A stretch of DNA of 64,000 nucleotides from Alphaproteobacteria bacterium (GTDB lineage: Bacteria; Pseudomonadota; Alphaproteobacteria; UBA828): assembly GCA_965221125.1 (NCBI GenBank), contig CBDCRW010000005.1:32001-96000 (forward strand), written 5' to 3'. Made by a program: the position numbers and the translations under genes. Shown one piece after another: positions 22,472 through 36,020 of the stretch; position 1 is the first letter of the stretch; every line of letters starts with the position of its first letter. Under the pieces are notes generated by a model. It worked only from the letters and a program-made list of their open reading frames with translations, did no database searches and was not told where the DNA came from.

Positions 22472-23143
22472 TCAGTTCGACCCGCAGCAGCGCTCGTAGG
22501 TCCGCCCCGAGCCGCAGTGACAGGGCGCGCCGCCAACCGCCTCGAAGGCGCCGCGCGCGGCGGCCATCCCCAGTTCGCCCCCGAATCCTTTGGATAGCGC
22601 CCACGCAGCGAGCGCCCGAACGCAGTCCGGGATCAGATCGGACGCGGACCGGCGGATCTCTTCGACCGCGTCCTCCGCCAGGTCCGAGACACCCTCGTCG
22701 ATGTCGTTCATCGTCTCGATCATGGCGAGCGAAACCATGGCCTCCTCGTCGCCGCTCGCCCCGATCTGCAGCCATGCCTCGGGCCGCAGGCCCTTCGCCT
22801 GCCGGAAGCCCCAGACCCAGGGCTCCCAGAGCAGCGCGCCCGTACCCGGATCGAAGCCAAGGACCACCCGGTATCCCTGCGGATCGATGGCGAGGTCCTC
22901 GGCCACCCGCCGGTAGTGGTCCGTGACCGCAAGCGTTGCGTCCACCGACTCTTCGACATCCTCCGACGCCCTGTCGCCGCCCCATACCAGCGGCAGCCAC
23001 TCCGTCGGCCCGACCCACTCGGGACAAAGCACGAGCCCGGCGACGAAGCCGTCCAGCTCGACCACCGTCATCGCCTCCCGCTCTTCCCCCAGCCGGTCCA
23101 GCAGGTCGGTCAGGAATGCGATCTCTTCTCCCGTGTGTCTCAT
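22472..23143 (-). CDS. UPF0149/YecA family protein with SEC-C motif
   Basis: ELDGFVAGLVLCPE..EWLPLVWG; C-terminal PCHCGSGRTYERCC. Confidence 0.85.
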   Translation of the reverse strand: MRHTGEEIAFLTDLLDRLGEEREAMTVVELDGFVAGLVLCPEWVGPTEWLPLVWGGDRASEDVEESVDATLAVTDHYRRVAEDLAIDPQGYRVVLGFDPGTGALLWEPWVWGFRQAKGLRPEAWLQIGASGDEEAMVSLAMIETMNDIDEGVSDLAEDAVEEIRRSASDLIPDCVRALAAWALSKGFGGELGMAAARGAFEAVGGAPCHCGSGRTYERCCGSN

Positions 23144-23316
23144 GGCGCGGGGATATGACGCCCGCCGCGCGGCGAGGTCAACGGCGGAGGGCGAGCCGGC
23201 GCCGCCCTGCCGGCCGGAGCGGCGTGTTCCGGGATTCGGGCGTGCCGAAGGCTGCCACGATCCCGTGCGGCCTTGGCTCTGCCGCCCGGCGGCGTAGTAT
23301 CCGCCCACCCTGCCAC

Positions 23317-23460
23317 AGCATTGGAGTATCGAGACATGGCGGCACGCTCTATCCGCAAGCCAGCCGCGCTCAAGGAAGCGATGACCAAGCATTGGAGTAT
23401 CGAGACATGGCGGCACGCTCTATCCGCAAGCCAGCCGCGCTCAAGGAAGCGATGACCAAG
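23317..23460 (+). repeat. Perfect 71-bp tandem duplication
   Basis: AGCATTGGAGTATCGAGACATGG...GCGATGACCA at 23317-23387 and 23388-23458. Confidence 0.95.
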
Positions 23461-23609
23461 ATGCCGTAATGGGGCTCGGCGCCAATCGGCACCATCGGAG
23501 CCTGTCCCGATGACGACGAATCGGGTGTCGTTGCCCTTGCACGCTCAGCGTGCTCACGGGGTCTTGCCGGAAGGCGCGCCCCAATCCTTCGAGAGGAAAG
23601 GGCAACGAC

Positions 23610-24653
23610 ATGGCTGTCTATATCGGGCTGGATGTATCGCTGGCAAGCACGACAATCTGCGTGATCGGCGACAAGGGCAAGATCGTGACCGAGGCTCAGG
23701 TCGCCAGCACGCCTGACGCGTTGGTTGCGTTCATGGGCAAGCTGGAGCACGAGATCGCCGTGATCGGTCTTGAGGCCGGTCCCCTGTCCCACTGGTTGCA
23801 CAAGGGGCTGACCGACGCCGGCTTCGAGGCCGTCCTTATGGAGACCCGGCGGGTGAAGGCGGCGCTGAAGGCGATGCCGATCAAGACGGATCGCCGGGAT
23901 GCCGAGGGCATCGCACGGCTCTTGCAGATGGGCTGGTTCAGGCCGGTGCACTGCAAGTCGGTATCGTCGCAGGAGATGCGCGCACTGCTGACCTCGCGCA
24001 GGTCCGTGAAGGGCGCGCTCACCGATATGGAACTCTCGCTGCGCGGCGTGTTGCGCAACTTTTGCCTGAAGCTGGGCCAGGTCTCGAAGGGCCGCTGGGA
24101 GGCCCGCGTCCGGGAGTTGATCGCAGGCAACGCGATGCTGGAGGCCGCCGCCGAACCGATCCTGCGCGCGCGGGTGGCTCTGCGCCGCGAGCTGGCCGGC
24201 CTGGAGAAGCTGGTCCGCGATCTGGCCAGGGAGGATCCGGTATGCCGGCTGCTGATGACCATGCCCGGCGTAGGCGCGGTCGTGGCCCTGACCTTCAAAT
24301 CGGCGATTGACGATCCCGGGCGGTTCCGGAGATCGAAGGATGTCGGCCCCTGGGTGGGACTGACGCCGGGCCGGGACCAATCCGGCGAGCGAGATATTGT
24401 CGGCGGCATCACGAAGTGCGGCGACGCAGGTCTGCGTACCGCGCTCTATCAGGCCGCCACGGTGATGCTGAACGGCACCGCCGGGCCGAACTGGCTGAAG
24501 GCCTGGGCGCTTCGTCTGGCGAAGCTCCGTGGCAAGAAGCGTGCGACCGTCGCCCTGGCCCGGCGCATCGGCGTGGTACTTCACCGGATGTGGCGGGACG
24601 GCACCGAGTTCCGCTTCACGCGCGAGGAGGCGATGGCGCTCCAGACGGCATAG
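23610..24653 (+). CDS. IS110-family DEDD transposase/recombinase
   Basis: YIGLDVS, GLEAG, KTDRRDA, PGVG, GLTP..DQSGE, VALARR. Confidence 0.95.
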   Translation: MAVYIGLDVSLASTTICVIGDKGKIVTEAQVASTPDALVAFMGKLEHEIAVIGLEAGPLSHWLHKGLTDAGFEAVLMETRRVKAALKAMPIKTDRRDAEGIARLLQMGWFRPVHCKSVSSQEMRALLTSRRSVKGALTDMELSLRGVLRNFCLKLGQVSKGRWEARVRELIAGNAMLEAAAEPILRARVALRRELAGLEKLVRDLAREDPVCRLLMTMPGVGAVVALTFKSAIDDPGRFRRSKDVGPWVGLTPGRDQSGERDIVGGITKCGDAGLRTALYQAATVMLNGTAGPNWLKAWALRLAKLRGKKRATVALARRIGVVLHRMWRDGTEFRFTREEAMALQTA

Positions 24654-24719
24654 GCGCGGCTGCATCCCACCGGCAATCGGAAGCGAGAGGAGGAAAGAGC
24701 CGCGCCTGAAGGTGGCGAT

Positions 24720-25060
24720 CCACCGGTGTCCCCTCGCCGGGACGCGGTTCCCGTTGATGCACGCGCTGCGTCTTGTCGGCCGAACCGTTTCATCGCGTTC
24801 GAGCACGCGACCAAGATCGGCACTCGGGAATCGTTTGGACCAGGCATGACGTTGGCAGCCGCTGCGCTGACCACGGACGGAAGCGAGAGCCTGGCGACGG
24901 ACACATCCGGGAATCCCGCTTCCTTCTTTGCCGCGCAGACGAGTCAGTTAGCCGCTCCCGCCATGGCAATCCGCTATGTTGACCGCGCCTGTGATTCGAT
25001 TTGCAACAGGCTACGGTGCTTCATGTGCGAGCCACCGTGCCAGGCCGGAAGATCGTGAAG
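24720..25060 (+). ncRNA. Predicted bridge/seek RNA of IS110 copy 1 (boundaries approximate)
   Basis: Target-matching segments at 24766-24775 and 24809-24816 lie inside a stem-bounded internal loop in the right non-coding end. Confidence 0.7.
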
Positions 25061-25068
25061 ATCGGTGT

Positions 25069-25097
25069 TTGACATCAACCGCCCCATTACGGAAGAC
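25069..25097 (+). promoter_or_regulatory. Outward -35 (TTGACA) at the IS right end; forms a junction promoter on circularisation
   Basis: TTGACA 25069-25074, 17-bp spacer, GAAGAC (becomes GAAGAT in the circle). Confidence 0.55.
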
Positions 25098-25257
25098 GCA
25101 GTTGGTGGCTTCCCTTTCTAAGGGGAAGTTAGGTAGAAATGTAAAGCTCGCAGGGGTAACACCTTGCGGGCTTTCATTTTTTGTTGAATTTCATGATTGA
25201 CACGTTTGGAGTCGCAATTCTAGGTAAGCCGGAACAAGGCAAGAGCGTAAACTTTCG

Positions 25258-26502
25258 ATGCCCGAGAGCGTCCGCAGAATCAGACTTCCCGGCGGCGAGA
25301 CGCTCCCCGCCCTGGTCGAGCCCGGCTCGGCCCCCGCGCCCGAGCCGATACGGTATGCGGTCTCCATTCTCAGAAACGCCGGCCGCGCCGAGAACACGAT
25401 CGAGGCGCACATGCGCGCGATCGCGGCGGCCCGGGTGTGGGCGCACTCGAACGGGCTCTCCCTCGAAGCACGCATGGCCACGGGCGCCGGTCTGGAGCTG
25501 CGGGAGGTCGAGAGTCTTTCCCATGCGCTGAAGACCGCCCGGGTTCCGGATCGGACCGAGCGTCCCCACCAAGCCAATGTCCTGCCGCTTTCCAGATCGG
25601 GCAAGGAGCTTCATCGGCACCTTCCCCACGACTGCGATGAGATGCTGGACCCCCAGACCGGAGCCAACCGTGTGCGGTCCGTCGCTGCCTATCTCGACTG
25701 GCTTGCAAGCCACAGCCGTGCCGCCGGATCGCAGCAGCTCCTTCGCGACACCGTCAAGGCTCTGACCGCCCGGGCGAAGGTGGGCGCGCGTCAACCGTCC
25801 GAGCCCAGGAAGGGCCTGTCGCCGGAACAGCGCGACCGGCTGTTCGCCGTCATCGATCCGTCCTCGCCGGAAAACCCGTTCCGGAGCGAGGCGGTTCGCT
25901 ATCGCAACCTTGCCGTTGTTGCCTGCCTTGACGAGACCGGCATGCGCAGGGGCGAGCTTTGCGGCCTGAAGATCCCGGACATCGACTTCAGGAAACTGAC
26001 GATCTCGATCCATCGGCGCCCTCCGGACCCCCGGGACCCTCGTCGGCAGAAGCCGAAGACCAAGTCCGGCGCACGGCCCGTGCCGATCAGGCCGGAGCTG
26101 GCGGACATCCTCTTCGCCTACCTGTCGGATTGGCGCCGGACCGAACCCGGCGCCCGGATGCACGCCTATGTCTTCGTGTCCCATGCAGGAATCAGGCCGG
26201 GAGCGCCGTTGACCCCGAGAAGCGTGGGCAACGTCTTCGCTGCGCTCGAAAGCGTTCTCGGCTTCCGTCTCCATCCTCACCTGTTGCGCCACACCTGGAA
26301 CGACAGGTTCTCGGCCGCGATCGACGGCAGGGCGGAGCGTGGCGATCGCACCCCCGAGGCGAGCGAGGAGCGCATCCGCAACTTCCTGATGGGATGGAGT
26401 CCGGATTCGAAGATGGCGGCGGTCTACACGCACCGTCACGTCGAACGGGCGGCCGAGGCCGCCCTGAGAGGCATGCACCAGGGATTGTTCGAGGGTGAGT
26501 AG
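25258..26502 (+). CDS. Tyrosine recombinase 1
   Basis: ETGMRRGEL, HPHLLRHTW, LMGWS..SKMAAVY. Confidence 0.9.
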   Translation: MPESVRRIRLPGGETLPALVEPGSAPAPEPIRYAVSILRNAGRAENTIEAHMRAIAAARVWAHSNGLSLEARMATGAGLELREVESLSHALKTARVPDRTERPHQANVLPLSRSGKELHRHLPHDCDEMLDPQTGANRVRSVAAYLDWLASHSRAAGSQQLLRDTVKALTARAKVGARQPSEPRKGLSPEQRDRLFAVIDPSSPENPFRSEAVRYRNLAVVACLDETGMRRGELCGLKIPDIDFRKLTISIHRRPPDPRDPRRQKPKTKSGARPVPIRPELADILFAYLSDWRRTEPGARMHAYVFVSHAGIRPGAPLTPRSVGNVFAALESVLGFRLHPHLLRHTWNDRFSAAIDGRAERGDRTPEASEERIRNFLMGWSPDSKMAAVYTHRHVERAAEAALRGMHQGLFEGE

Positions 26503-27982
26503 TCCGGGCGGATTGCAGCCTGCCGGCGCTCCGCGAGAGCGCGGCATCCATGCGGGATTCGATTCCGGCGGCGACGTCTGGAAGATCGTGCTGGAGAAGG
26601 GCGTGACCCGCATCTCCTTCAAGCCGATACGAGATCATTGGGGCGCCGGGCACGCCGACAACGTCAAGCAGGCTGCCCTTGCCTACATGGAAGATCGCTC
26701 CCCCGACACCGTGTTGGGGGGCGTCCAGGCCCTCGCAAGAATGGCGCGGGATGTCCCGGTCGGCGCCACCATCTCTGCGGCGGCTCTCATGGACTACCGG
26801 TCGCTGCTCGCTCGCGAGCAACTGCACTATCTGGGCCACGTCGCGGCGTTCCTGAAGTTCTGGGTCGCACGCGGCTACGCCGGGGTCGACCGCGACGTGC
26901 TGCAGTTCTTCAGCAGCATCAAGATACCCGGGAACGTCAAGGGCGCCGCCGTCCGCACGCACCACCCCACGAAGGGTCCCTTCACCGATGTGGAGTTGCA
27001 GAGCATCACCCTTGCGGCACGCGAGGCGTATGGCGAGGGCCGCGTGAGCAGGCAGGACTTCGGCATTCTTCTCACGCTGACCGCAACGGGGGCCCGGCCC
27101 GGCCAGCTGTCGATGCTGACTTGTGGCGATCTGGTTCCGCCTGCACCGGGATCGGCCGCATCTCGCCTCCTGGTGCCGTCTCTCAAGAAGAGGACGCCGA
27201 AGCGCCTCACGCGCGAGCGGGTCATCCCTGGCGAGCTTGCCGTTCTGCTTAGGGAACTCGTCGAGGAGCGATCCCGCGACGAGCGCTTCCGGGGCATTCC
27301 GGTCGACCGGCGTCCGATCTTTGCCGTCGAGGCGACCGCCTTCGCATCGCTCGCGGAGGCACACATCGGCAGGGGCGGTGCCGGCCGCGCTCTGAGGCGC
27401 ATCCAGAGCGCGCTCGGCCTTCGGTCGGCGCGCACTGCCGCTCCGATCAACCTGGCGCCCCGGCGGTTCCGGAGCACTCTCGGGACGCGTGCTGCCGATG
27501 TGGGTCACCCTCCTGTTCTGATCGCTCACCTTCTCGATCACACCGACCTCCAGCACGTCGGCGTGTATGTGGAGTCGCGCGGCTCGATCCAGGACCGCAT
27601 GGACGCCGCCCTTCATGGCCGGGCGGAGCCGCTGGCCGGGCTGTTCAGGGGCACGATCGTTGCGGGCGAGGTCGAATCCGGCGCCGGGGAAGCGCCGTCG
27701 CGTCGCGTTGCGTCCGCCGCCGGCGGAGGCGTGGGAACCTGCGCGGGCCCGCGCAGCTGTGTCCGTCTGGCGCCGCTTGCATGCTACACCTGCGCCGCGT
27801 TCCGTCCCTGGCGTGACGCGCCTCACGAGGATCTGCTGCAGTCCCTGGTCGAGGAGCGCAGGACGCTTCTCGCGGACGGGATCTCCCCGCAGGTGGCCGC
27901 CGCCAACGACGCAACCATCATGGCCGTCGCGGAGGTCGCCGATCGTTGCCGCGCGATGCGGACGGGGGTGGCTCATGGCTGA
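26495..27982 (+). CDS. Tyrosine recombinase 2 (C-terminal Cys cluster)
   Basis: TGARPGQL, PRRFRSTLGT, LLDHTDLQHVGVY; GTC..SC..LACYTC. Confidence 0.85.
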   Translation: MSSPGGLQPAGAPRERGIHAGFDSGGDVWKIVLEKGVTRISFKPIRDHWGAGHADNVKQAALAYMEDRSPDTVLGGVQALARMARDVPVGATISAAALMDYRSLLAREQLHYLGHVAAFLKFWVARGYAGVDRDVLQFFSSIKIPGNVKGAAVRTHHPTKGPFTDVELQSITLAAREAYGEGRVSRQDFGILLTLTATGARPGQLSMLTCGDLVPPAPGSAASRLLVPSLKKRTPKRLTRERVIPGELAVLLRELVEERSRDERFRGIPVDRRPIFAVEATAFASLAEAHIGRGGAGRALRRIQSALGLRSARTAAPINLAPRRFRSTLGTRAADVGHPPVLIAHLLDHTDLQHVGVYVESRGSIQDRMDAALHGRAEPLAGLFRGTIVAGEVESGAGEAPSRRVASAAGGGVGTCAGPRSCVRLAPLACYTCAAFRPWRDAPHEDLLQSLVEERRTLLADGISPQVAAANDATIMAVAEVADRCRAMRTGVAHG

Positions 27983-30029
27983 GCTCGCGCTCTTCCGGCC
28001 GGCGGAGGCGCTCGATGCCGAAGCGAGGCTCGCCGAGTTCATCCGTCATGCGCGCGACGACCTCACGGTGTTCGGCGCCGAGCTCGACTGGGACGCGCCG
28101 AGATGGGAGCTGCGCGGAGTTGCCACTGTGTCGGGCCGCAGCAAGAGCGTGCTTCGCCTCAACTGGGGTCATCCCCTGAAGAAAGCGCCAAGGTCGATCG
28201 AGCACTACGCGCCGTTCGGCGCCCGCAACGCCGACTTCTTCAAGGCGTACCTGCGCTACAGGTATGGTCTTGCCCCACAGATGGCCCCTCAGCTGATGCT
28301 CTCGGCGATGCGGCATCTCGACAAGACTCTCGCCGAAGCTGGCAAATCGATTGCCGACGCGCGGCCCGACGACTTCAACGCCGCCGCCGCGGCCTCTCGC
28401 TCTGCTTACAGCCGCCACACTGCGTATCGCGTCGGCCTGCAGCTTCAAGCGATCGCCGGCTTTCTCGACCATCACGGCCTCGTCGCGCGGCCTCTCGTCT
28501 GGACCTGCCCCATCAGGCGGCCGACGAGCTTCGATCGCATCGGCGTCGAACGCGAGCGGGCTCGGGCCCGGAAACTTCCCTCGGAACGCGCGCTTGCCGC
28601 GCTCGGAGAGGCATACCGCCGCGCCGAGCATCCAATGGACGTGATTGCCGCTTCCGCATACGCCCTTCTCCTGGTGACGCACAGCCGCATCTCCGAGCTG
28701 CACCGGCTCGACGCCTACGATTGCGAAGTGGAGGCCGTCGAGAGCGGCAAGGACCGCTACGGCCTGCGCTGGTATCCGTCGAAGGGCGGCGAGCCCGAGA
28801 CGCGCTGGATCCCGAGCGCGTTCGTGCCGCTGGCGAGGGACGCGCTGAAGCGCATTCGAGACGTCACCGAGCCCGCCCGCGCGCTTGCGCGCAGGTACAT
28901 GGCCGGCGAGGACATCCTCCCGGGCGACGCCCCGGACGATCCTCTCGCCCGCGAGGGCTACATCAGCATGAGGAGTCTCGGAACGGCCGCCGATCCGAGG
29001 ACCGTGCTTGTCGCGCTGCGCAGAAACGGATTCGATGTTCGCGCGGACCACGCAACACAGCTGGGCGTCAAGCTCGCAATGAACGCCAAGCTTTATCTCC
29101 GCGCGCCGATCGAAGAAGGCTTTCGGGCGGAGCTCCCGCAAGGCTTCCCGCTGGCCGATCCCAGATCCGGCCTCGGATACGACCGCGCGCTGCTCGTACG
29201 CACCGCTGACATGGCCCGGCAATCGTGCACTCTCTTCTGGCGCCTTTCCTGCGTCTCGACCAGCGAGATCAAGAACACCATGAACGGGAGAGACTGCACG
29301 AGCGATCAAAAGGCTGGATTGTTCGGCCGTCTCGGGCTGGTGGACGACGATGGCGAGACCGTCCGCATCACGCCTCACCAGCTGCGCCACTACATGACCA
29401 CGCTGGCGAACGAGGGGAACCTGTCGCAGCTCGACATCGCGAGATGGGCGGGCCGCAAGGACATCCGGCACAACGCGTACTACGACCACGAAACCGCCGA
29501 TTCCCTCGTCTCCAAGGCGCGCTCTCTCGGCGGGGACATCTTCGGCAGCCCGATGACGGCAACCCCTCAGCGGCCGGTGACCCCGCGGCAGCTGATCGAG
29601 GGCAGTCTCGCCGGGGTGCATCTGACGCGTTACGGCGCCTGCCTGCACGACTTTGCGGCGTCGCCCTGCCCGATGTACCGGGACTGCCTGAACTGCGTCG
29701 AGCACGCCTGCGTCAAGGGAGACGAGCGCGCCGAGCGCGCCCTGCGCGACCGCCTAGCCGTCATCCAGAAAGCTGTCGCGTCCGCGGAAGAGGCCGCAGC
29801 TATCGGCGAAGGCAACTCGGAGATCTGGCTCTCCCGCAAGAGGACCGAGCTTGCGCGCCTGCGCGAGCTCGTCGCCCTGATCGACGACGCGGCGATCGCG
29901 CCGGGCGCCGTCCTGAGGCTCGACGGCGCGGCACGCTATGCGATCGGCGGCGACGGGGCCGGTTCGGCGAAAGCCCTGCCCGGCCCCGGCCCGGCTCCCG
30001 ATTCCTTACCCCGGCTACGGAAACCGTGA
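27975..30029 (+). CDS. Tyrosine recombinase 3 (large, C-terminal Cys/His cluster)
   Basis: HSRISEL, TPHQLRHY, WAGRKDIRHNAYYDH; GACLHDFAASPCP..DCLNC.EHAC. Confidence 0.87.
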   Translation: MAELALFRPAEALDAEARLAEFIRHARDDLTVFGAELDWDAPRWELRGVATVSGRSKSVLRLNWGHPLKKAPRSIEHYAPFGARNADFFKAYLRYRYGLAPQMAPQLMLSAMRHLDKTLAEAGKSIADARPDDFNAAAAASRSAYSRHTAYRVGLQLQAIAGFLDHHGLVARPLVWTCPIRRPTSFDRIGVERERARARKLPSERALAALGEAYRRAEHPMDVIAASAYALLLVTHSRISELHRLDAYDCEVEAVESGKDRYGLRWYPSKGGEPETRWIPSAFVPLARDALKRIRDVTEPARALARRYMAGEDILPGDAPDDPLAREGYISMRSLGTAADPRTVLVALRRNGFDVRADHATQLGVKLAMNAKLYLRAPIEEGFRAELPQGFPLADPRSGLGYDRALLVRTADMARQSCTLFWRLSCVSTSEIKNTMNGRDCTSDQKAGLFGRLGLVDDDGETVRITPHQLRHYMTTLANEGNLSQLDIARWAGRKDIRHNAYYDHETADSLVSKARSLGGDIFGSPMTATPQRPVTPRQLIEGSLAGVHLTRYGACLHDFAASPCPMYRDCLNCVEHACVKGDERAERALRDRLAVIQKAVASAEEAAAIGEGNSEIWLSRKRTELARLRELVALIDDAAIAPGAVLRLDGAARYAIGGDGAGSAKALPGPGPAPDSLPRLRKP

Positions 30030-30030
30030 C

Positions 30031-30450
30031 ATGGCCCGGCACCTCACCGAGACCAACGTCGAAACGCTCGCCAGGACCATCGGCACGCTCGAGGTGGCCA
30101 CGTGGGGCGCGGTCGTGAGGCTGGCGCGGCGACGGCTCGGCCACGCCTACTCGCGCCAGGCGCTGTCCAGGCATGAACGGATAAGGACGGCGCTCGCGGC
30201 CCGCAGGGAGCAACTCAGGGGCAGCGGGGCGGGGCGGCGGCCGAGACCGAAGACCGACACCGAAGCGGCCCTCCTCGAGCGCATCGATTCCCTGGAAGCG
30301 GACCTCTGCCGGCTTCGCGCCGAGAACGAGGCGATGATGACCCGGTTCGCCGTCTGGGCCTACAACACGCACGTTCTCGGCATTCCCGACCATCGGCTGG
30401 ACGCTCCGCTTCAGCCGGTCGATCGAGAATATAGCGAGCATGACGCATGA
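30031..30450 (+). CDS. Small helical/coiled-coil accessory protein of the recombinase cassette
   Basis: MARHLT..TW..YSRQALSRHERI plus coiled coil; starts 1 bp after the stop of recombinase 3. Confidence 0.75.
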   Translation: MARHLTETNVETLARTIGTLEVATWGAVVRLARRRLGHAYSRQALSRHERIRTALAARREQLRGSGAGRRPRPKTDTEAALLERIDSLEADLCRLRAENEAMMTRFAVWAYNTHVLGIPDHRLDAPLQPVDREYSEHDA

Positions 30451-30986
30451 GCAGGGGCAGCGGCGCGGAACGCGGCCGGCAGGCGGTGCTGCGCCTGCGC
30501 GAAGAGATCGACGCGCGCGAGGCGGCCGGCGAGACCTTGCCCATGAACGGCCGGGCTCTCCATCTGGCGAAGATCTGCCAGCTGGTCGGGGTTGGCCGGT
30601 CGACGGTGACGCAGAACCCGTCCTTCCGCGCCATGCTCAAGGACTACGCCGGCCGGAAGGGCGTGGCCTTCTCCGCCAGAGGATCGCCGCCCTCCGTGCA
30701 CGACCGCCAGACCACGGGAGCTGTCGAGGCGCCGGGCGACGCCGGCGGGGAGGCCATGGTGCCGGCCTCCCGCCTGCGCGAGGAACAGCGGCGCAGCGCG
30801 GCCGCCGAGCGCCGCGTCAGCGAGCTGGTCGCCAGGAACGCGGCGCTCATCGCCCGCCTGAGGCGCTATGAGGCTACCGATCAAGCGCTGATCGCCGCCG
30901 GTCGCCGCTACAGGCCCAGGCCGCCGGAGAAAGAGAACTCCGGCCCCGGACAGAGCCGCCTTCAGCTCGACGAGACGTCCGAATGA
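30447..30986 (+). CDS. HTH + coiled-coil accessory protein (TnpC-like)
   Basis: LAKICQLVGVGRSTVTQNP HTH; ATGA overlaps on both sides. Confidence 0.7.
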   Translation: MSRGSGAERGRQAVLRLREEIDAREAAGETLPMNGRALHLAKICQLVGVGRSTVTQNPSFRAMLKDYAGRKGVAFSARGSPPSVHDRQTTGAVEAPGDAGGEAMVPASRLREEQRRSAAAERRVSELVARNAALIARLRRYEATDQALIAAGRRYRPRPPEKENSGPGQSRLQLDETSE

Positions 30987-32962
30987 GCCGGCCGGGCGCA
31001 GCCGCCCGTGCCGCCGTCGAGGCCCCGATGCCGCGAAGGCCCGGCGCGCTCGCGGCGTACCTTGCCGAGGACCGGGACTTCCGCGGCATCGGCCCCGCGA
31101 AGGCCGCTGCCCTGGCAGCCGCATTCGGCGACGGCCTGCGTAACGCGCTCGACCGGAAACATCCCGAGGTCACCGCCATCCTCGGCGAGGAAACCGCCAC
31201 CAACGCGTTCGCGGCCTACGAGTTGAAGAGCCCCGAGATCGAGCTTCTCGACTGGCTGGAAAGCCGGGGGGTCGCCCCCGCTGTCGGGACGCGTACCGCG
31301 ATCAGGATCGCCCGCTGCTGGGGCCATGACGGCATCGACGCCCTGAAGGACAATCCCTACCTCCTCGCGAGCTTCCTGCCCTGGCCTGCAACCGACAGGG
31401 TCTGCCGCGCTCTCGGCGTCGCGCCCGACGATCCCCGCCGCGCCGTCGCCGCCGTCGAGGCCACCCTCTACCGCCGCCTCGACCGGAACCATACATGGAC
31501 GTCCCGCGCCTCGGCAGAGGCCGGGGCCGCGAAGCTGCTCACCGGCGTAGCGGCTCCGGACGGCAGCCCTGCCGGACCCTGGGCGGTCGAGAGCGCCGTC
31601 GAAGCCGGCGGCGCCGAGCCCTTCGAGGACGGCGTTCAGCCCATGGGCGCGGCCGCCATGGAGGCCTTCCTTGCCGAAGAGCTCGCACGCTTCGCCGCCG
31701 AAGTTCCGGCGTCCGACCTGGCCTTGCCAGCTGTTGCCGGCGAGGAGATCGGGCACGCCGTTGACGAGTATGAACGCCGCCGGCCGCACCGCCTCACGGG
31801 CCCGCAGAAAGCCGCCATCGCGGGCGCCTTCCGGCACCGGCTGTCGGTGCTGGGCGGCTATGCCGGCTCCGGCAAGACCACGTCCCTGCGCGGCATCTGC
31901 GAGCTGGCGGAACGCTTCGGCCGCGACACCGTGCTCATCGCGCTCTCGGGCCGCGCGGCGCAGCGCATGGCCCAATCGGCGGGGCGCCCCGCGATGACGA
32001 TCGCCCGCTTCCTCAAGGAGACCTCCGGCGGCGCGGGTGCGCGCTTGCATGCAGGCAACATCGTCATCGTCGACGAGGCGTCCATGGTCGACCTTCCCCT
32101 GCTCTGGCAGGTGGTGAGACGCATCGGGGACGCCTCCCTCGTTCTCGTCGGCGATCCCGCGCAGCTTCCGCCCATCGGCTTCGGCCTGACCTTCCACGTG
32201 CTCATCGAACATCCCGCCATCCCGAAGACCGTCCTCGACCGCGTGATGCGTCAATCGGCCGAGACCGGGATACCGGTCGTGGCCGAGGCCATTCGCAACG
32301 GCCGCCGCCCGGAGCTCGGCCCCTTCCGCGGCCTGGCGCCGGGGGTGACGTTCATCGACGCCGCCCCGGAGGAGGCGTTCGACGTCATCTTCGATGCCGG
32401 CGCGCGGCTCGCCAAGAACGGATTGCGCCGGGGCGACGCTCAGATCGTCGCGCCGGTCAACGCAGGACCGGCGGGCATCCTCGCCATCAACCGCCGGTTC
32501 CACGAACTGCGGATGCAGGGCAGCGCCCATACCCCCCGTCTCGTTCCCGGCCGTGCCGACATCGCCGAAGGCGATCCCGTCATCTGGACCCGCAACGACT
32601 ACGAGCGCGACCTCATGAACGGCTCCACCGGCCGTATCGTCGAAGCGCACCGGGACCATGCGACGGCGGTCATCGACAGCCAGGAGCACCGGCTGGGCGC
32701 CGCCGACGCCACCAACATCGAGCTCGCCTACGCGATCTCCGTGCACAAGGCGCAGGGCTCGCAGTGGCCCCTGGTGATCGTGCCCGTCTACCGGTCCAGG
32801 ATCCTCGACAGAACGCTGATCTACACCGCGGCCACGCGGGCCTCGGAGCAGGTCGTCTTCGTCGGAGACCGAAACGTCTTCGACGCTGCCGTCGCAACGG
32901 CGCCAAGGAATCTGAAGCGCGACATCACCCTGGCGTCGCGCTTGAGATCGATCGGGCAATGA
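30983..32962 (+). CDS. RecD2-like SF1B DNA helicase
   Basis: FRGIGPAKA, DNPYLL, GYAGSGKTT, VDEASMVD, VGDPAQLPPIG, AYAISVHKAQGSQW, LIYTAATRA. Confidence 0.93.
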   Translation: MSRPGAAARAAVEAPMPRRPGALAAYLAEDRDFRGIGPAKAAALAAAFGDGLRNALDRKHPEVTAILGEETATNAFAAYELKSPEIELLDWLESRGVAPAVGTRTAIRIARCWGHDGIDALKDNPYLLASFLPWPATDRVCRALGVAPDDPRRAVAAVEATLYRRLDRNHTWTSRASAEAGAAKLLTGVAAPDGSPAGPWAVESAVEAGGAEPFEDGVQPMGAAAMEAFLAEELARFAAEVPASDLALPAVAGEEIGHAVDEYERRRPHRLTGPQKAAIAGAFRHRLSVLGGYAGSGKTTSLRGICELAERFGRDTVLIALSGRAAQRMAQSAGRPAMTIARFLKETSGGAGARLHAGNIVIVDEASMVDLPLLWQVVRRIGDASLVLVGDPAQLPPIGFGLTFHVLIEHPAIPKTVLDRVMRQSAETGIPVVAEAIRNGRRPELGPFRGLAPGVTFIDAAPEEAFDVIFDAGARLAKNGLRRGDAQIVAPVNAGPAGILAINRRFHELRMQGSAHTPRLVPGRADIAEGDPVIWTRNDYERDLMNGSTGRIVEAHRDHATAVIDSQEHRLGAADATNIELAYAISVHKAQGSQWPLVIVPVYRSRILDRTLIYTAATRASEQVVFVGDRNVFDAAVATAPRNLKRDITLASRLRSIGQ

Positions 32963-33266
32963 CCTCGTTCAGCGACACCCGCCTGCCGGCTGGCCCCATC
33001 GCGCCCTGATCGCCCCCATCCCGCGCCCCCCTGATCAAAACTGCGCCCTGGCGGCTTCCAATGCCGGCGCACGCCCGGCCGCAGCCGGCCTCTCGTCGCG
33101 TGCGATCCGTGAAGCCGTCGGCTACCTGTCGGCCACCGGGGCGCCGGGCCTGGCAGAGGTGGAGAGTGGCTGGAGGAGGATGAACGGAGAAGGGCGGGGA
33201 GAGAGATCCCCCGGCCCGCTTCGTTCCGCAACCATCGTCAGAAACTCGGATGAACAGGAGACGATC

Positions 33267-33686
33267 ATGAGCTTCGGGATGAACAGGGCTGAGCTCATCG
33301 GACGCTTGGGCGCCGATGCGACCATCACCAATCTCACGTCCGGCGGGCGCGTCGCCAATATGAGCGTGGCGACCGACGAGGGGTACATCGACAAGACCGG
33401 CGAGCGCGTCGATCGCGTGGAATGGCACAAGGCGGTGACCTTCCAGGACGGGCTCATCGGCATGCTCGAAAAGCACGCGAAGAAGGGTCGCCTGGTCTAC
33501 GTCAGCGGCAAGCTCCAGACGCGCAGGTGGCGGAAGGAGGGCGAGGACAGCGACCGCTTCTCCACCGAGATCCTGCTGGTGCCCGGTTCGCGGATCCAGT
33601 TCCTCGAGCGCACCAACGGCACCGCCGCCACCCAGGACGACCGCCGGCCGGCAGAAGCCGGCCATGCCTCCGATTCGCCGTTCTAG
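33267..33686 (+). CDS. ssb: Single-stranded DNA-binding protein
   Basis: MNRAELIGRLGAD, VEWHKAV, KGRLVYVSGKLQTRRW, C-terminal DSPF. Confidence 0.93.
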   Translation: MSFGMNRAELIGRLGADATITNLTSGGRVANMSVATDEGYIDKTGERVDRVEWHKAVTFQDGLIGMLEKHAKKGRLVYVSGKLQTRRWRKEGEDSDRFSTEILLVPGSRIQFLERTNGTAATQDDRRPAEAGHASDSPF

Positions 33687-33969
33687 GAGCATGATCGCCG
33701 TCTACTCCCGATCGGGCCGGCGCTTCGCGCGTCGGCCCGTCCTTCCTGGCCTCGCATCGGGTGCCGACGACAAAAGTGTAAACAATGTCGCCCATATCGG
33801 GCCAATCTCGGCGGCATTGTTTACAAGAGATCCGCACGGAAGGGCACCGGAACACCAAAAGATCGTTGTGAATCAAACCACTCACTCAAACGTTACACGG
33901 TCCAACTTCCCATAACCGTTCTAGTTGCCTGTCCCCGCAGCGGGCCTTCCCCGCCCGCTCGCTCCAGAG

Positions 33970-34008
33970 CCCGCCCCGCGTTCCTCCCGCGCGGGGCGGG
34001 TTTTTTCA
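33970..34008 (+). terminator. Rho-independent terminator
   Basis: CCCGCCCCGCG-loop-CGCGGGGCGGG followed by a T7 run. Confidence 0.75.
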
Positions 34009-34211
34009 TGCAGCCTGATCCGAGTCCCTCACGGGCGGGACGGCGCGCCGTGCGCTTCGCGCGGCGCCTGCCGTTCCGGCGCCGGCGAGAGGCCGGTCGA
34101 GGCCGGGACCGGGGCGCGTCCCACGCAGCGTCCGGAGAGGTCTCTCATGCGCCCCATCCCCGCTCACACGTCCGGCTCCCCCGGTTCTCCCAGACGCCCG
34201 AGGTGTGCATC

Positions 34212-35204
34212 GTGAGCGCCGCCGCTCGCGTCGCGGCCGCCCTCGGCGCACGCGCCGAGGAGGTGTGCCGCCGCTACCTCCCCCAAGGCCGCAAGCAGGG
34301 TCGATACTGGACCGCCGGCGACGTCTACGGCGCGCGGGGGCGGTCGCTCTTCGTCCGCCTGGCGCCCCCCGGCGTCCCGGGGAAGTGGACCGACGCGAGC
34401 AGCGGTCAGCACGGCGACCTGCTCGACCTCATTCGCATCTCTTCGGGCGCGGGCTCGCTCCGCGCAGCCCTCGCCGAGGCGCACGCGTTCCTCGCGTCGC
34501 CGCCCGTGCCGTCCTCCGCCATTTCCGAAGACTACGACCGCACCGAGGCGGCCCGCCGCCTCTGGCGCCGTTGCCGCGCCATCGACGGCACCCATGCCGA
34601 GGCCTACCTCGAGGCCCGCGGCATTGAGCGCTACCGCTTCGCGGCCCTGCGCTTCCATCCCGGCCTTTTCTACCGCGACGACGGCGGCGTGCGCCGCCTG
34701 CCGGCCCTGGTCGCGGCCGTCACCAGCTCCGACGAAGCCGTCTGCGGCGTGCTGCGAACGTGGTTGCACCCGACCAGGCCCGCCAAGGCGAATGTGAGTC
34801 GCCCGCGCAAGGCGCTCGGGCGCGTGCACGGCCATGCCGTCCGCTTCGGTGCTCCCGGCGCCGGCACGCTGCTGGTCGGCGAGGGGATCGAGACCGTGCT
34901 GTCCATCGTCACGGCCATCCCCGATACCGTCGCCGCCGCAGCGCTGTCCGCCGGCAGCCTCGGCGCATTCGCGCCGCCTGCCGGCGTCACGCGGCTGGTG
35001 ATCGCGCGCGACAACGACCCCGAGGGAGAGCGTGCCGCCGAGCGCCTCGCCCGGCGCTGCGCACGCGCGAGGGTCGCCGCACTGGTCGTCGCGCCCGAGC
35101 GCGATGACTTCAACAGCGATCTCGTCGCCCTCGGCGCGCCGGCGCTTCGCGCCAGACTCGCGCCGATCTTCCACCGCCGGGTCTGCGCCGGGGACCGGTG
35201 GTGA
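34212..35204 (+). CDS. Toprim-domain primase-like protein of conjugative elements
   Basis: GRYWTAGDV.G..GRSLFVRL, GKWTD..HGDLLDLI, VGEGIETVLS, IARDND, DDFN. Confidence 0.85.
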   Translation: MSAAARVAAALGARAEEVCRRYLPQGRKQGRYWTAGDVYGARGRSLFVRLAPPGVPGKWTDASSGQHGDLLDLIRISSGAGSLRAALAEAHAFLASPPVPSSAISEDYDRTEAARRLWRRCRAIDGTHAEAYLEARGIERYRFAALRFHPGLFYRDDGGVRRLPALVAAVTSSDEAVCGVLRTWLHPTRPAKANVSRPRKALGRVHGHAVRFGAPGAGTLLVGEGIETVLSIVTAIPDTVAAAALSAGSLGAFAPPAGVTRLVIARDNDPEGERAAERLARRCARARVAALVVAPERDDFNSDLVALGAPALRARLAPIFHRRVCAGDRW

Positions 35205-35302
35205 CGATCGCCCGGCCAGAGACGGAGAAGAGCAAGCGCCGGGCGAGCGGCGCAGAGAGGGAGAGAGGCTTCTCCCCGCCGCCATCACGCCAGGAGCGCA
35301 GC

Positions 35303-35536
35303 ATGAGCAGCACCATCACCTTCACGCGCGTCGCCGACGACGAGGCTCGCATCCTCGACGCCGACGGCGGCCATGTCGGCGATCTCTTCCGTCATCCCGA
35401 CATCCTTCATCCGGGTTCGTCCTACTTCGTGATCCATCTCGATGAAGATCCCCGCGGCCCGGTGCGTGTGCACGACCGCTCGCGCATTCGCGAGGTGGCC
35501 GAGCAGCGTATCCGCTCACACCCACTCTGGTCGTGA
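35303..35536 (+). CDS. Hypothetical protein
   Basis: AGGAG RBS, ATG, 77 aa with coding-like codon use. Confidence 0.55.
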   Translation: MSSTITFTRVADDEARILDADGGHVGDLFRHPDILHPGSSYFVIHLDEDPRGPVRVHDRSRIREVAEQRIRSHPLWS

Positions 35537-35667
35537 TGCCGGCAGGCACAACAGAAACGGGGACCGTGCGTGGGGAGAGAATAGCCACCCCGTCGTGATG
35601 TCCGAGGATGTCACGCGTGCTCATTCCAGCAACCCTGCGGGTCCTTCGGTCGCTCCGCTCCCTGCGG

Positions 35668-35940
35668 CCTGACCCAAGATGGTCTAAGGCGGGCCGTGAA
35701 CGTCGCCGACCGTGAAGTTGGCTTGCCAGAACTCTCCAACGCCGAGTGTGTGGCGCACCGGCCCCTCGCGCGGGGCCGGCGCGTCGGCCTGATGCTAGCA
35801 GTTCTTGAGAAGGCCTACTCGAAACGCGGCTACCCACCACGGCTGCGCATCAGGCCTCCCAGGCACAGAGAACGCCAACTTCCGCACCAACATCGGCGAC
35901 GTTCCGCACCGACTCCCGCCTAAGACCATCTAGGGCCAGG
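35668..35940. other. 273-bp non-coding element with nested inverted repeats
   Basis: Nested stems of 26, 12, 9 and 10 bp plus an internal hairpin (see findings). Confidence 0.75.
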
Positions 35941-36020
35941 TGCTTCCACTGCGCGCGCGTGAAGAAAAAGGACATCACGAAGGGGCACTGGGCCCCGGAG
36001 GATGAACAAGGGAGGTCGAC

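Follow-up and report, generated by a model that had tools for sequence, protein, structure and literature searches.

Between positions 25119 and 33915 of the window (the whole stretch of 64,000 nucleotides that was analysed), three tyrosine recombinase genes are followed by two genes for small proteins, a RecD2-type helicase gene and an ssb gene. The original prediction, made from the sequence alone, regarded this unit as a candidate new mobile element, which raises three questions: whether the unit moves, whether it represents a new class, and what a helicase gene might be doing behind a recombinase operon.

Extent, Copies and Activity of the Element

The predicted ends turned out to be exact to the base. 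The 8,797-bp unit (25119-33915) is bounded by imperfect 12-bp inverted repeats, TAAGGGGAAGTT at the left end (25119..25130, + strand) and AACTTCCCATAA at the right end (33904..33915, - strand, placed from the junctions and the comparison of the copies), which match at 10 of 12 positions, and it recurs at four places: the genome contains four complete copies with 0 differences, a fifth one interrupted by an IS and a sixth one truncated where its contig ends. A short-read contig of 8,802 bp, obtained independently, covers exactly 25116-33917 and stops at the element ends. No circle junction was found in the assembled contigs of the sample, in which rare forms are dropped.

These copies might in principle derive from segmental duplication, gene conversion or assembly error, with an element that is itself immobile now; two of them (C7a and C7b) lie indeed within a large inverted duplication of contig C7, their mirror coordinates summing to 46428, and copy C4b, truncated by the contig end, has the same left flank. 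Such an origin is nevertheless extremely unlikely for the whole set, since both flanks differ among the C2, C4a, window and C7 copies and the breaks fall at the same two bases, the attL and attR spacers of these copies are unlike, and paralogous empty sites are present. The short-read contigs of the same sample also end at the element ends, with a word depth of 51-102 versus 15-32 in the flank contigs, a measure that, by the tool's own warning, is no copy number. Moreover, the alignment of the C2 and window copies revealed 223 mismatches, all of them outside the element, in flanks that are only ~80% alike; hence, the two copies are separate insertions. At least four independent ssb paralogues of this genome have acquired the element, with no base change among the insertions, and its multiplication here is recent. 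It is likely, taking identity and mode of insertion together, that it is an active integrative element of the GInt type (ginABCD/Tn6571-like), inserted site-specifically at ssb ends.

Target Site and Termini

All copies lie on ssb genes of the plasmid/ICE type, at their last codons (..PF-stop). In the window, the attL overlap (spacer) CCTTTC (25113..25118) corresponds to the final Pro and Phe codons of the target ssb, and attR (33916..33924) consists of the overlap CCGTTC and of TAG, the displaced original stop. The left junctions of the six copies all read ..CCNTTC followed by TAAGGGG, so that the stop at attL is always TAA; the one after attR varies by copy (TAG, TGA or TAA). The flanking repeat is the 6-bp CCNTTC or, including the stop, an imperfect 9-nt CCNTTCTRR, and three ssb paralogues carrying CCNTTC and a stop represent empty attB sites. 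Insertion into plasmid/ICE-type ssb genes is site-specific, the last two sense codons being the target and the crossover lying within the 6-bp overlap. Of 22 other loci, 13 likewise have an ..IPF-stop tail immediately 5' of rec1.

The SSB protein remains unchanged because the element supplies its own TAA stop, i.e., the first three bases of the left inverted repeat, and a terminator hairpin. The latter, resembling an intrinsic terminator (25143..25174, + strand, 13 pairs and a T tract), lies just inside the left end and is kept in the related loci L007, L008 and L010; the host's own ssb terminator is located beyond attR, at 33979-34000. Both ends are AT-rich, with a GC content of 0.44 in the segment 5' of rec1 (25119-25257) and of 0.49 in the final 150 bp, versus 0.68 for the window. 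The right terminal segment contains a conserved hairpin (33777..33825), whose 11-bp arms, TGTAAACAATG and CATTGTTTACA, are identical between the window and L007 even though the adjoining sequence differs.

The ssb gene targeted by the C2 copy is flanked by a SNF2/methylase-type helicase gene and by Toprim, YspA and TrwC relaxase genes; those downstream of it recur beside the other ssb paralogues. Since the targets adjoin a TrwC relaxase gene, the element would hitch-hike on conjugative DNA.

The Recombinase Operon

The seven genes of the element all lie on the + strand, and the compact arrangement proposed for the first six was borne out: rec1/rec2 and rec2/rec3 overlap by 8 nt each, a 1-nt gap separates rec3 from p139, and the p139/p179 and p179/RecD2 junctions are ATGA overlaps. 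The gene in the GinA position, rec1 (25258..26502, 414 aa), encodes a tyrosine recombinase of the ordinary type (PF00589, 1.9e-14). In the GinB position, rec2 (26495..27982, 495 aa) matches the NCBIfam model NF041502 with 355 bits, above the cut-off of 350, and bears a C-terminal Cys cluster; the large recombinase encoded by rec3 (27975..30029, 684 aa), in the GinC position, has a four-Cys cluster. PF00589 matches rec2 at 2.4e-4 and rec3 at 1.2e-3, both under the gathering score, and the rec3 match is weak and C-terminal.

The catalytic Arg and Tyr that had been recognized in all three proteins are conserved throughout the homologue alignments. Those of rec1 retain R230, K269, R344 and Y390 in 19/19 sequences (H341 in 18/19), those of rec2 R201, K231, R326 and Y358 in 18/18, and those of rec3 R238, K270, H468, R471 and Y503 in 15/15. 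With Arg, Lys, Arg and Tyr all in place, the three recombinases look catalytically complete, judging from their sequences. The two predicted Cys clusters are conserved as well (rec2: C430 and C433 in 18/18, C422 in 16/18; rec3: C556, C565 and C574 in 15/15, C571 in 14/15). The fourth gene, p139 (30031..30450, 139 aa, GinD position), encodes a small helical/coiled-coil protein, whose family, detected with profile A1, lies 3' of rec3 in 21 of 24 loci, the window counted; coiled coils were its only matches in a PDB sequence search, and no NCBIfam model matched it.

Affiliation of the Element

The original prediction had argued for novelty by comparison with RIT, Tn554 and SE/GMT elements, overlooking the GInts (PMC5385486). 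These elements have a 5' operon of three tyrosine-recombinase-like genes and a gene for a ~140-aa protein, within a ~5.2 kb core (PMC5385486; PMC10121019); the published ginABCD of the Tn6571 type spans 5,318 bases (Bardaji 2017, PMC5385486) and the equivalent region here 5,193 bases. Further shared traits are the cargo 3' of the small gene, AT-rich ends (a short one at the 3' side), short imperfect direct repeats at the borders, fitting a 6-7-nt staggered cut, the entry of many GInts into the 3' end of ssb with the protein left intact, and the possible presence of several elements in one genome (Bardaji 2017, PMC5385486). In addition, homologous trios followed by the small gene (428/520/689/149 aa and 406/504/665/145 aa) lie behind plasmid ssb genes in the P. 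aeruginosa plasmids pTROUS1, which is conjugative, and pPAD8.

The element differs from the described GInts in four respects: the conserved p179 and RecD2 genes and then ssb behind the core, the five to six identical copies in one genome, a host that is probably an alphaproteobacterium, and a rec3 with a complete catalytic set, Arg-I included, GinC being said to miss the first Arg (Bardaji 2017, PMC5385486) or the RHRY motif (Idola 2023, PMC10214605). A class distinct from GInt, SE, GMT, Tn554 and RIT elements could be argued from these intact residues, unlike published GinC and Tfp, from the two conserved extra genes, and from the fact that Idola 2023 (PMC10214605) did not find a ginC-ginD block in Alphaproteobacteria. 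This is, however, very unlikely: every structural feature used for calling a GInt was found here, published GInt calls rest on structure even without BLASTP similarity, trios homologous to this one follow Pseudomonas plasmid ssb genes, and gin operons have been reported from Alphaproteobacteria (Bardaji 2017, PMC5385486). The element is thus not a new class, being of the GInt type on structure, with the prototype GinABCD compared by description only. Of the original claim, mobility stands; novelty at the class level fails on the very point that had been set against it, a match to a described family in gene order, size, ends and ssb target.

SEs (strand-biased circularizing integrative elements, intA-tfp-intB-srap) share the succession of an ordinary, a middle and a large recombinase-fold gene and a small one, imperfect terminal inverted repeats (13-19 bp), a 6-bp spacer at each end and the absence of an empty donor site, and the spacers observed in this genome would fit the SE rule whereby the donor's attL spacer becomes the attR spacer (PMC10214605). 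They differ in their Tfp, which is devoid of RHRY (R, K, R and Y are all present in rec2), and in being known from Gammaproteobacteria only (PMC10214605); in a tblastn search of plasmids with rec2, Vibrio was not among the ten genera listed, beyond which there were seven further ones. GMT islands (GmtY-GmtZ-GmtX) possess two recombinases versus three, a GmtZ bearing PF13009 (Integrase_2), absent from the present element, a GmtX that is another small protein than p139 and, in the accessible part of their description (10.1101/2023.03.28.534373), inverted-repeat sites as targets rather than ssb ends. Tn554 (tnpA, tnpB, tnpC) shares site-specific insertion with a 6-bp footprint, but it has just two recombinases and no helicase and occurs in Firmicutes. 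RIT elements (recombinase-in-trio) likewise have three tyrosine recombinases side by side, which are smaller and are not known to be accompanied by a small accessory gene, a helicase or an ssb target.

The p179-RecD2 Cassette and the Element-Borne ssb

The p179 gene (30447..30986, 179 aa) encodes a VPA1267-family protein (NF040697, 1.1e-7) with an N-terminal HTH-like segment and a leucine-zipper-like C-terminus, distantly related to the GinD-like p139 family (hhalign 79.5%, E 1.5e-5). The following gene (30983..32962, 659 aa) encodes a RecD2-type SF1B helicase with AAA_30, UvrD_C_2, HHH_RecD2 and SH3_13 domains, whose closest solved structure is that of D. radiodurans RecD2 (3e1s, 1.2e-47); none of 10 homologues deviates at Walker A (G292..K298-T300), at D364-E365 or in motifs III, V and VI.

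The proposed coupling of the helicase to the operon was corroborated, RecD2 lying 3' of the recombinases in 5/5 close loci and in 6/16 distant ones, the latter sampled without regard to its presence. The search for recurrence of the gene order retrieved the cassette (p179 family and RecD2) in 11 of 23 related loci, 12 being devoid of it. The p179 profile (A2) matches 12/12 RecD2-bearing loci and 0/11 others; the occurrence of p179 and RecD2 is strictly joint, as a cassette of two genes placed always directly 3' of the small GinD-like gene and often with a stop/start overlap. The same cassette is found behind unrelated recombinase cores: in GMT islands it is placed after gmtX, as in pEC732_IMP14, where gmtY, an integrase gene, gmtX and a VPA1267-family gene precede that of a 721-aa ATPase, and one GMT plasmid element has it with 94-95% identity to that of a trio element. 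This strict pairing, its sharing with GMT islands and a fully catalytic recombinase trio go beyond the GInt, SE and GMT accounts consulted; the main text of Bardaji 2017 (PMC5385486) contains 0 occurrences of "helicase" and "RecD".

The last gene, ssbE (33267..33686, 139 aa, PF00436 2.3e-21), ends in ..DSPF-stop and its product shares 67-76% identity with the target SSB paralogues. It lies within a 735-bp insert (32963 to about 33697) missing from L007 in the alignment with that relative and, outside the window and its copies, it was found only in L008.

Possible Role of the Cassette

By analogy with GInt, SE and GMT experiments, the three recombinases and the GinD-like p139 would together recombine attL with attR to form a circular copy and insert it at another ssb end, probably by a replicative process that leaves the donor copies in place. 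It may tentatively be proposed that the portable cassette aids this replicative (copy-out) step: p179 would recruit the 5'-3' helicase to nicked or strand-exchanged ends, RecD2 would unwind the element strand and, in this lineage, the freed strand would be coated by the element's own SSB. The strict co-occurrence of the two genes, the invariant helicase motifs, the remote relationship of p179 with the GinD-like family and the sharing of the cassette with GMT elements, whose transfer is replicative, via a circle and plasmid-mediated, with plasmid carriage common (Mahata et al., 10.1101/2023.03.28.534373, accessible part), are consistent with this role, as is the retention of the cassette in L007, which is otherwise free of cargo. 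The cassette would be helpful rather than essential; it is absent from half of the related loci, and ginABCD alone suffices for a synthetic GInt to integrate and excise (Bardaji 2017, PMC5385486). A helicase is not required for the chemistry, because SEs are replicative and yet the SE main text nowhere mentions one (Idola 2023, PMC10214605); nor does the cassette alone yield many copies, because the genomes of the four relatives searched carry a single copy each.

It is rather unlikely, although only slightly less probable than the role just outlined, that p179 and RecD2 (and ssb) are the cargo of a GInt, i.e., a phage-defence, counter-defence or other system benefiting host or element. Defence cargo is abundant in GInts and GMT islands and begins right behind the core; unrelated recombinase cores have exchanged the cassette, as would be expected of cargo, and RecD2 is scattered over the rec3 tree (5 changes, with 110/500 shuffles doing as well). 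RecD2 also matches helicase models of PADLOC candidate systems (typeIV_RecD 6e-51, PDC-S68, RecD_like), but in the generic helicase core only, and no PADLOC model matched p179; the constant junction with the end of the recombinase operon, the kinship of p179 with a recombination accessory family and the otherwise cargo-free L007 speak against mere cargo. A clearly less probable reading assigns the cassette and ssb to hitch-hiking, either in handling ssDNA on conjugative entry or in circle replication/mobilisation, like plasmid leading-region genes. The TrwC relaxase gene beside the target ssb genes, the plasmid ssb targets in pTROUS1 and pPAD8, the plasmid-mediated GMT transfer, and the likeness of RecD2 to the helicase part of TraA/TraI relaxases (TIGR02768 1e-33; PF22232) would fit it; family scans, however, detected no relaxase domain, oriT or replication initiator in the element, and the cassette also occurs behind ssb genes with the usual ..DDDIPF tail (L011, L037, L039 and L042) and where no ..PF-stop tail lies upstream of rec1 (L044, L045 and L048).

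Surroundings of the Window Copy

No ssb gene is left upstream of the element within the window: the target ssb has been replaced by an IS110-family insertion sequence (23454..25099, with PF01548 and PF02371 in a 367-aa ORF) that abuts the element, and only ~17 nt of its 3' end persist (25102-25118). This insertion sequence has five more matching places in the genome.

Copies of the Element and Recent Activity

The comparison of the copies harbored by the window's own genome (G000) delimits a unit running from TAAGGGGAAGTT (25119) to AACTTCCCATAA (33915), and these boundaries coincide exactly with the ends proposed in the original prediction. A search of this genome located rec2, one of the recombinase genes of the element, at six places with 100% identity. 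BLAST and motif anchoring disclosed four complete 8,797-bp copies with zero differences, i.e., the window copy and those at C2:28362-37158, C4:651333-642537 and C7:813-9609 (C2, C4 and C7 being contigs of the same genome); a fifth copy (C7:48430-36819) is identical save for a 2,810-bp IS with a 5-bp duplication, and the sixth is cut off where contig C4 ends. The 2,810-bp IS of this C7 arm is also located at C3:6369-9178. From position 1 to about 48900 of C7, the two copies, together with their flanks, mirror each other, with coordinates summing to 46428, which represents either a large inverted duplication or an assembly fold-back.

Since the two C7 copies lie in one inverted duplication, and the copy C4b shares their flank, at least four independent insertions can be counted (window, C2, C4a and the C7 type). 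The flanks differ between insertions: in the 10.1-kb alignment with C2, all the mismatches (223/223) fall within the 1.26 kb lying outside the element. In addition, an 8,802-bp contig from public sequencing runs, which probably correspond to the source sample, extends precisely from 25116 to 33917, with a word depth of 51-102 vs 15-32 for the flank contigs, bearing in mind that depth does not equal copy number. No circle joint was found in the public-run contigs, which drop rare forms and whose listed joints have sides of only 20-33 nt, and no plasmid matched the element in a megablast search. On the whole, this is a real mobile element that has been recently active.

Insertion at the 3′ End of ssb Genes

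In every copy, the left flank ends with the codons for (I/F)-P-F, followed by the TAA of the element, and beyond every right end there is CC(G/A)TTC with a variable stop codon (TAG, TGA or TAA). Hence, the insertion occurs in a 6-bp overlap, CCNTTC, corresponding to the final Pro-Phe codons of ssb; it swaps the stop codon of the target gene and leaves the protein unchanged, the ..IPF or ..FPF tail being kept. A 9-nt border repeat (CCNTTCTRR) is present at both borders of five copies. A strong terminator-like hairpin (25143-25174) comes with the element, and the terminator of the host ssb is now located beyond the right junction (attR), at 33979-34000. The same product-preserving insertion at ssb ends was found in 13 of 22 other loci.

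The tblastn census of G000 yielded 16 ssb-like matches, namely the five copies of the element's own ssb (ssbE), eight plasmid-type paralogues sharing 67-76% identity with ssbE, and three distant sequences. Of the eight plasmid-type paralogues, five carry an insertion, whereas the other three are empty and have ends reading ATCCCGTTCTAG, ATACCGTTCTGA and ATTCCCTTCTGA. The same genome thus holds several identical copies along with occupied and empty paralogous targets, and represents a clean natural experiment. The C2 target ssb is flanked by a large SNF2/methylase-type helicase gene on one side and by Toprim (DUF7146), YspA and TrwC-relaxase genes on the other, and the other ssb copies of G000 are accompanied by paralogues of these downstream genes. 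This neighborhood places the targets on conjugative plasmid or ICE DNA, and such a location suggests a travel route for elements regarded as "non-mobilizable".

Some further repeats surround the window copy. Its target ssb has been replaced by an IS110-family IS (23454-25099), encoding a 367-aa DEDD transposase (PF01548, PF02371) and matching five further places of G000; the IS is located about 17 nt from the left end of the element, these 17 nt being what is left of the gene. Immediately to its left, a 77-bp unit occurs twice, side by side, in the region 23313-23460. A 1,453-bp repeat (37464-38916), with a 331-aa ORF without any Pfam match, is present at 13 further places on contigs C4-C7 with 99.7-100% identity and is presumably another IS.

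The gene ssbE is carried by an insert of 735 bp that separates RecD2 from the conserved terminal segment; by comparison with the related locus L007, the insert ends about 10 bp past the ssb stop codon. Among the related loci, an element-borne ssb was found outside the window only in L008. The tail of ssbE reads ..DSPF (TCG CCG TTC TAG) and not IPF. In every used or empty target (attB) of G000 and in 13 ssb tails elsewhere, the CCN codon is preceded by A/T-T-N, giving IPF or FPF, and occupied ends are 0/5 for ssbE vs 5/8 for the target-type genes. Judging from these sequences, the SPF tail could confer self-immunity against the insertion of the element into its own gene.

The spacers at attL/attR are CCT/CCG (window), CCC/CCG (C2), CCG/CCA (C4a) and CCA/CCA (C7). 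In SEs (intA-tfp-intB-srap elements), integration follows a 6-bp, strand-biased rule, according to which the attB spacer stays at attL and that of the donor's attL is passed on to attR (Idola 2023, PMC10214605). The spacers are compatible with this rule and with a chain leading from C7 to C4a and from C4a to C2 and the window, although these are four sites only and the repair of a mismatched overlap (heteroduplex) fits equally.

Structure of the Genes and Proteins

The layout originally predicted (three recombinases, two small proteins, RecD2 and ssb) was confirmed by ORF listing, translation and family scans. The seven genes share the same orientation: rec1 (25258-26502, 414 aa), rec2 (26495-27982, 495 aa), rec3 (27975-30029, 684 aa), p139 (30031-30450, 139 aa), p179 (30447-30986, VPA1267 family), RecD2 (30983-32962, 659 aa) and ssbE (33267-33686, 139 aa). 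The first six had been described as overlapping or abutting, and indeed the five junctions from rec1 to RecD2 measure 8 nt, 8 nt, a 1-nt gap, ATGA and ATGA; a gap of 304 bp separates RecD2 from ssbE. The sigma-70 promoter scan retrieved no site, and the Rfam scan of 23000-36000 no family.

A phage-integrase domain was recognized by Pfam in rec1, rec2 and rec3, with a strong match for rec1 only, and rec2 scores above the cut-off of NCBIfam NF041502 (355 bits vs 350). The alignments with homologues from related loci agree with the catalytic regions foreseen in all three recombinases and with the Cys clusters foreseen in two of them (three Cys in rec2, four in rec3): the catalytic Arg, Lys, (His/Arg-x-x-)Arg and Tyr are retained in each protein. 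More specifically, R201, K231, R326 and Y358 of rec2 are conserved in 18/18 sequences and H349 in 16/18 (the rec2 of locus L010 was left out because of an internal stop), and R238, K270, H468, R471 and Y503 of rec3 in 15/15 homologues.

The p179 protein weakly matches NF040697, "VPA1267 family" (1.1e-7), and is remotely related to the family of p139, which is GinD-like (hhalign 79.5%, E 1.5e-5, 99 columns). PDB sequence searches with the profiles of p139 and p179 retrieved only leucine-zipper/coiled-coil chains, at E 0.003 or worse. The helicase has the HHH, 1A/2A helicase core and SH3 set of domains (PF14490, PF13604, PF18335, PF13538), its closest solved structure is RecD2 of D. radiodurans (3e1s, 1.2e-47), and its helicase motifs are invariant among homologues. 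Since it reaches 338 bits with TIGR01448, below the equivalog cut-off of 500, it is a RecD2-like paralogue and not the housekeeping RecD2. PADLOC reported generic helicase matches only for RecD2, and none for rec1-3, p139, p179 and ssbE.

Comparison with Known Classes of Elements

The element had been presented as a candidate new mobile element; however, a direct counterpart overlooked in that proposal exists in the literature, i.e., the GInts (ginABCD; Bardaji 2017, PMC5385486), also referred to as Tn6571-family transposons and placed in the Tn554 family. According to the same paper, GInts consist of a gin operon, cargo starting from the end of ginD, a short AT-rich and poorly conserved 3′ end, and imperfect direct repeats of 10-17 nt; in a subset targeting ssb, attL overlaps the end of this gene without altering its product. 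The window element likewise has a 5′ operon of 414-, 495- and 684-aa recombinases and a 139-aa helical protein, and its rec1-p139 core spans 5,193 bp, whereas 5,318 bases are published for the ginABCD genes of the GInt encoding phaseolotoxin. Different relatives have different genes behind p139; the ends are AT-rich, with a GC content of 0.44 and 0.49 (the latter over the last 150 bp) vs 0.68 for the window; the border repeats are short and imperfect, at 9 nt; and the insertion is site-specific for the 3′ end of ssb, with its product unaltered. Homologous trios of the same size are located directly behind ssb, and followed by other cargo, in the P. aeruginosa plasmids pTROUS1 and pPAD8 (E 6e-44 and 3e-54 with the window rec2), and the homology extends to the p139 family.

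On the basis of build, sizes, AT-rich ends, ssb target and plasmid trios, the element is filed as GInt-type, with the reservations that the comparison with the prototype GinA-D (P. stutzeri DSM 4166; P. syringae pv. phaseolicola 1448A, PSPPH_4294-4297) is by description only and that rec3 keeps the full catalytic set. GinC is described as devoid of the first Arg (PMC5385486) or of RHRY (PMC10214605); rec3 does not share this loss, which is a descriptive trait of the prototypes and no stated criterion. Gin operons are reported in Alphaproteobacteria by Bardaji 2017 (PMC5385486), whereas the survey of Idola 2023 found no ginC-ginD block there (PMC10214605); the present element extends the ssb-targeting GInts to probable Alphaproteobacteria.

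SEs, which form nicked double-stranded circles (PMC10214605), possess a Tfp without RHRY, unlike the window rec2 with its R201, K231, R326 and Y358. GMT elements (GmtY-GmtZ-GmtX) have two recombinases, with Integrase_2 (PF13009) in GmtZ, and GmtX, in contrast to the three recombinases found here; neither PF13009 nor the gmt NCBIfam models matched any window protein, and PF13009 recognizes GmtZ of plasmid pEC732_IMP14 at 6.5e-119. The sole part in common with GMT is the cassette formed by the VPA1267-family protein and RecD2. This is a known kind of mobile element, which differs in a helicase cassette that is widely shared and has gone unremarked, in a trio with all its catalytic residues, and in its own ssb.

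Distribution and Portability of the Helicase Cassette

The rec2 scan of species-representative genomes gave five loci out of 139 pattern matches, belonging to two Alphaproteobacteria MAGs, Silicimonas, a Rhodospirillales MAG and Rhodoferax; the closest relatives of the element are in alphaproteobacterial MAGs. The order rec1, rec2, rec3, p139, p179, RecD2 is repeated in 5/5 of them (L009 being a short contig that begins inside rec2), and an ssb or a ..IPF-stop tail is present upstream wherever the contig extends. Among 401 sampled Pseudomonadota genomes, NF041502 was detected in 16, one of them being G000. Of the remaining 15 genomes, all but G131 supplied loci (16 loci from 14 genomes); together with the five loci and two Pseudomonas plasmids, these make 23 loci besides the window.

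A profile search found the p139 family in 20 of these 23 loci, RecD2 (>300 bits) in 11, and the p179 family (E <=1e-30) in the identical 11; counting the window, p179 accompanies RecD2 in 12/12 loci vs 0/11 of those without it. L033 has a different, weaker helicase match and no p179. The cassette always lies behind the small GinD-like gene, and in L007, the element stops about 205 bp past RecD2 with no other cargo. In L007, an insert of about 2.7 kb (L007 15359-18112) interrupts RecD2; in L010, rec2 has a TAA stop codon, and rec1 matches as two overlapping pieces.

RecD2 might have been the marker of a single clade of elements, but on the rec3 tree (19 rows, quick method), its presence requires five changes, a value equaled by 110 of 500 label shuffles. 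A tie to ssb targeting was discarded too, because the cassette-free L034, L035, L036, L049 and L050 also target ssb, and no ..PF-stop tail precedes rec1 in the cassette-bearing L044, L045 and L048. Lastly, a tie to high copy number is at odds with the single copies in the genomes of the relatives.

In the RecD2 tree, an alpha-type clade mirrors the rec3 tree, but the RecD2 and p179 genes of L037 are sisters of those of L045, although the recombinases of these two loci are far apart. NF040697 was found in eight of the same 401 genomes, G000 included; the eight places outside G000 comprise six trio-plus-RecD2 loci, one in G107, and a weak one with nothing related nearby. The G107 locus (L064, G107:C10 4920-12336) is a third type of operon, in which different recombinases precede the same terminal cassette: a 607-aa protein without Pfam match, a 650-aa integrase, a 360-aa HTH protein, the VPA1267-family protein and a 712-aa RecD2. 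It adjoins a yfbR-like gene, as pEC732_IMP14 does. The VPA1267 family was also found in 46 plasmid records, where PGAP names its neighbors gmtX and "AAA family ATPase" or "RecD-like helicase"; in pEC732_IMP14, gmtY, an integrase (Integrase_2), gmtX, the VPA1267-family gene and a 721-aa ATPase all abut. The cassettes of L045 and pEC732_IMP14 share 95% and 94% identity, and the recombinases and GinD-like protein of L045 have no match in that plasmid, which indicates that the cassette moves between GInt-like and GMT cores. In plasmid pCFR-e790 (L070), a GMT element is broken by IS66 and IS26, and macrolide-resistance genes adjoin an unannotated region behind the VPA1267-family gene.

The cassette thus recurs behind the recombinase core of two classes of elements without being mentioned in the main texts of the papers defining them: "helicase" and "RecD" have no occurrence in those of the GInt (PMC5385486) and SE host-range (PMC10214605) papers, nor in those of the Tox-island and GMT preprints (10.1101/2023.03.28.534373; in the latter, "ATPase" and "AAA" are also absent), although the supplementary cargo tables of these works may list such genes. 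"VPA1267" occurred in none of the papers searched, and nothing relevant on a mobile element with tyrosine recombinase, RecD2 and ssb was found among the matches listed.

Possible Role of the Cassette

The insertion at ssb ends is precise, repeated and recent, with reading frames preserved and helicase motifs conserved. It is reported by Bardaji 2017 (PMC5385486) that circle formation and integration both require the complete set of four gin genes, that ginABCD alone works in Pseudomonas, and that some GInts leave no empty site; the GMT preprint (10.1101/2023.03.28.534373) describes copy-and-paste movement of the island VPaI-6. In the window element, the gin core (rec1-p139) would carry out the recombination chemistry. 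Against an essential cassette stand the roughly half of the relatives that do without it, the activity of ginABCD alone, and the single, partly decayed copies in the four relatives' genomes searched. Our tentative reading is that p179-RecD2 may be an optional helper of a replicative step and the element's SSB a lineage-specific addition. The cassette might instead be cargo, as its place behind the GinD-like gene would allow, a reading only slightly less likely than that of a helper; were it so, it would be a widespread two-gene system. That it serves conjugation or establishment, a notion suited to the conjugative surroundings of the targets, appears improbable.

A broader form of the helper reading, which we consider somewhat unlikely, is that the VPA1267-family protein and RecD2 constitute a portable "copy-out booster" serving GInt and GMT elements, i.e., tyrosine-recombinase transposons within the Tn554 superfamily; in the present lineage, an SSB with an altered tail would be an addition to it. 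The small protein (p179 in the window) would be a diverged GinD-type end-binding factor that loads the 5′-3′ helicase where strands have been exchanged at the ends; one element strand would then be peeled off and replicated. If true, this would explain the absence of empty donor sites for such elements, the five to six identical copies found here, and the SPF instead of IPF tail, which would keep ssbE from being its own target. Genes for resistance, virulence and defence are found on GInt, SE and GMT elements, and the cassette is a concrete candidate for the missing DNA-unwinding step in the replicative, donor-preserving transfer achieved by tyrosine recombinases.

As for the ends, the terminal repeats differ among the window, L007, L010 and L008, and a conserved hairpin is located near the right end, at 33777-33825. 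A TGTAAA or CTGT(A) motif is located about 19-27 nt inside the crossover at most left ends (window, L007, L008, L010, L034-L037, L049 and L050), in relatives with recombinases sharing no more than about 25-35% identity with those of the window, and TGTAAC/T occupies the mirrored position at the right end in the window and L007; as a sequence pattern, this motif may be a candidate recombinase-binding site. The sponge-metagenome runs X5-X20 contain 0.32-0.41 of the sampled words of the element, and run X5 has contigs 90-99% alike, distributed from rec1 to ssb, so that relatives of the element are present in sponge microbiomes.
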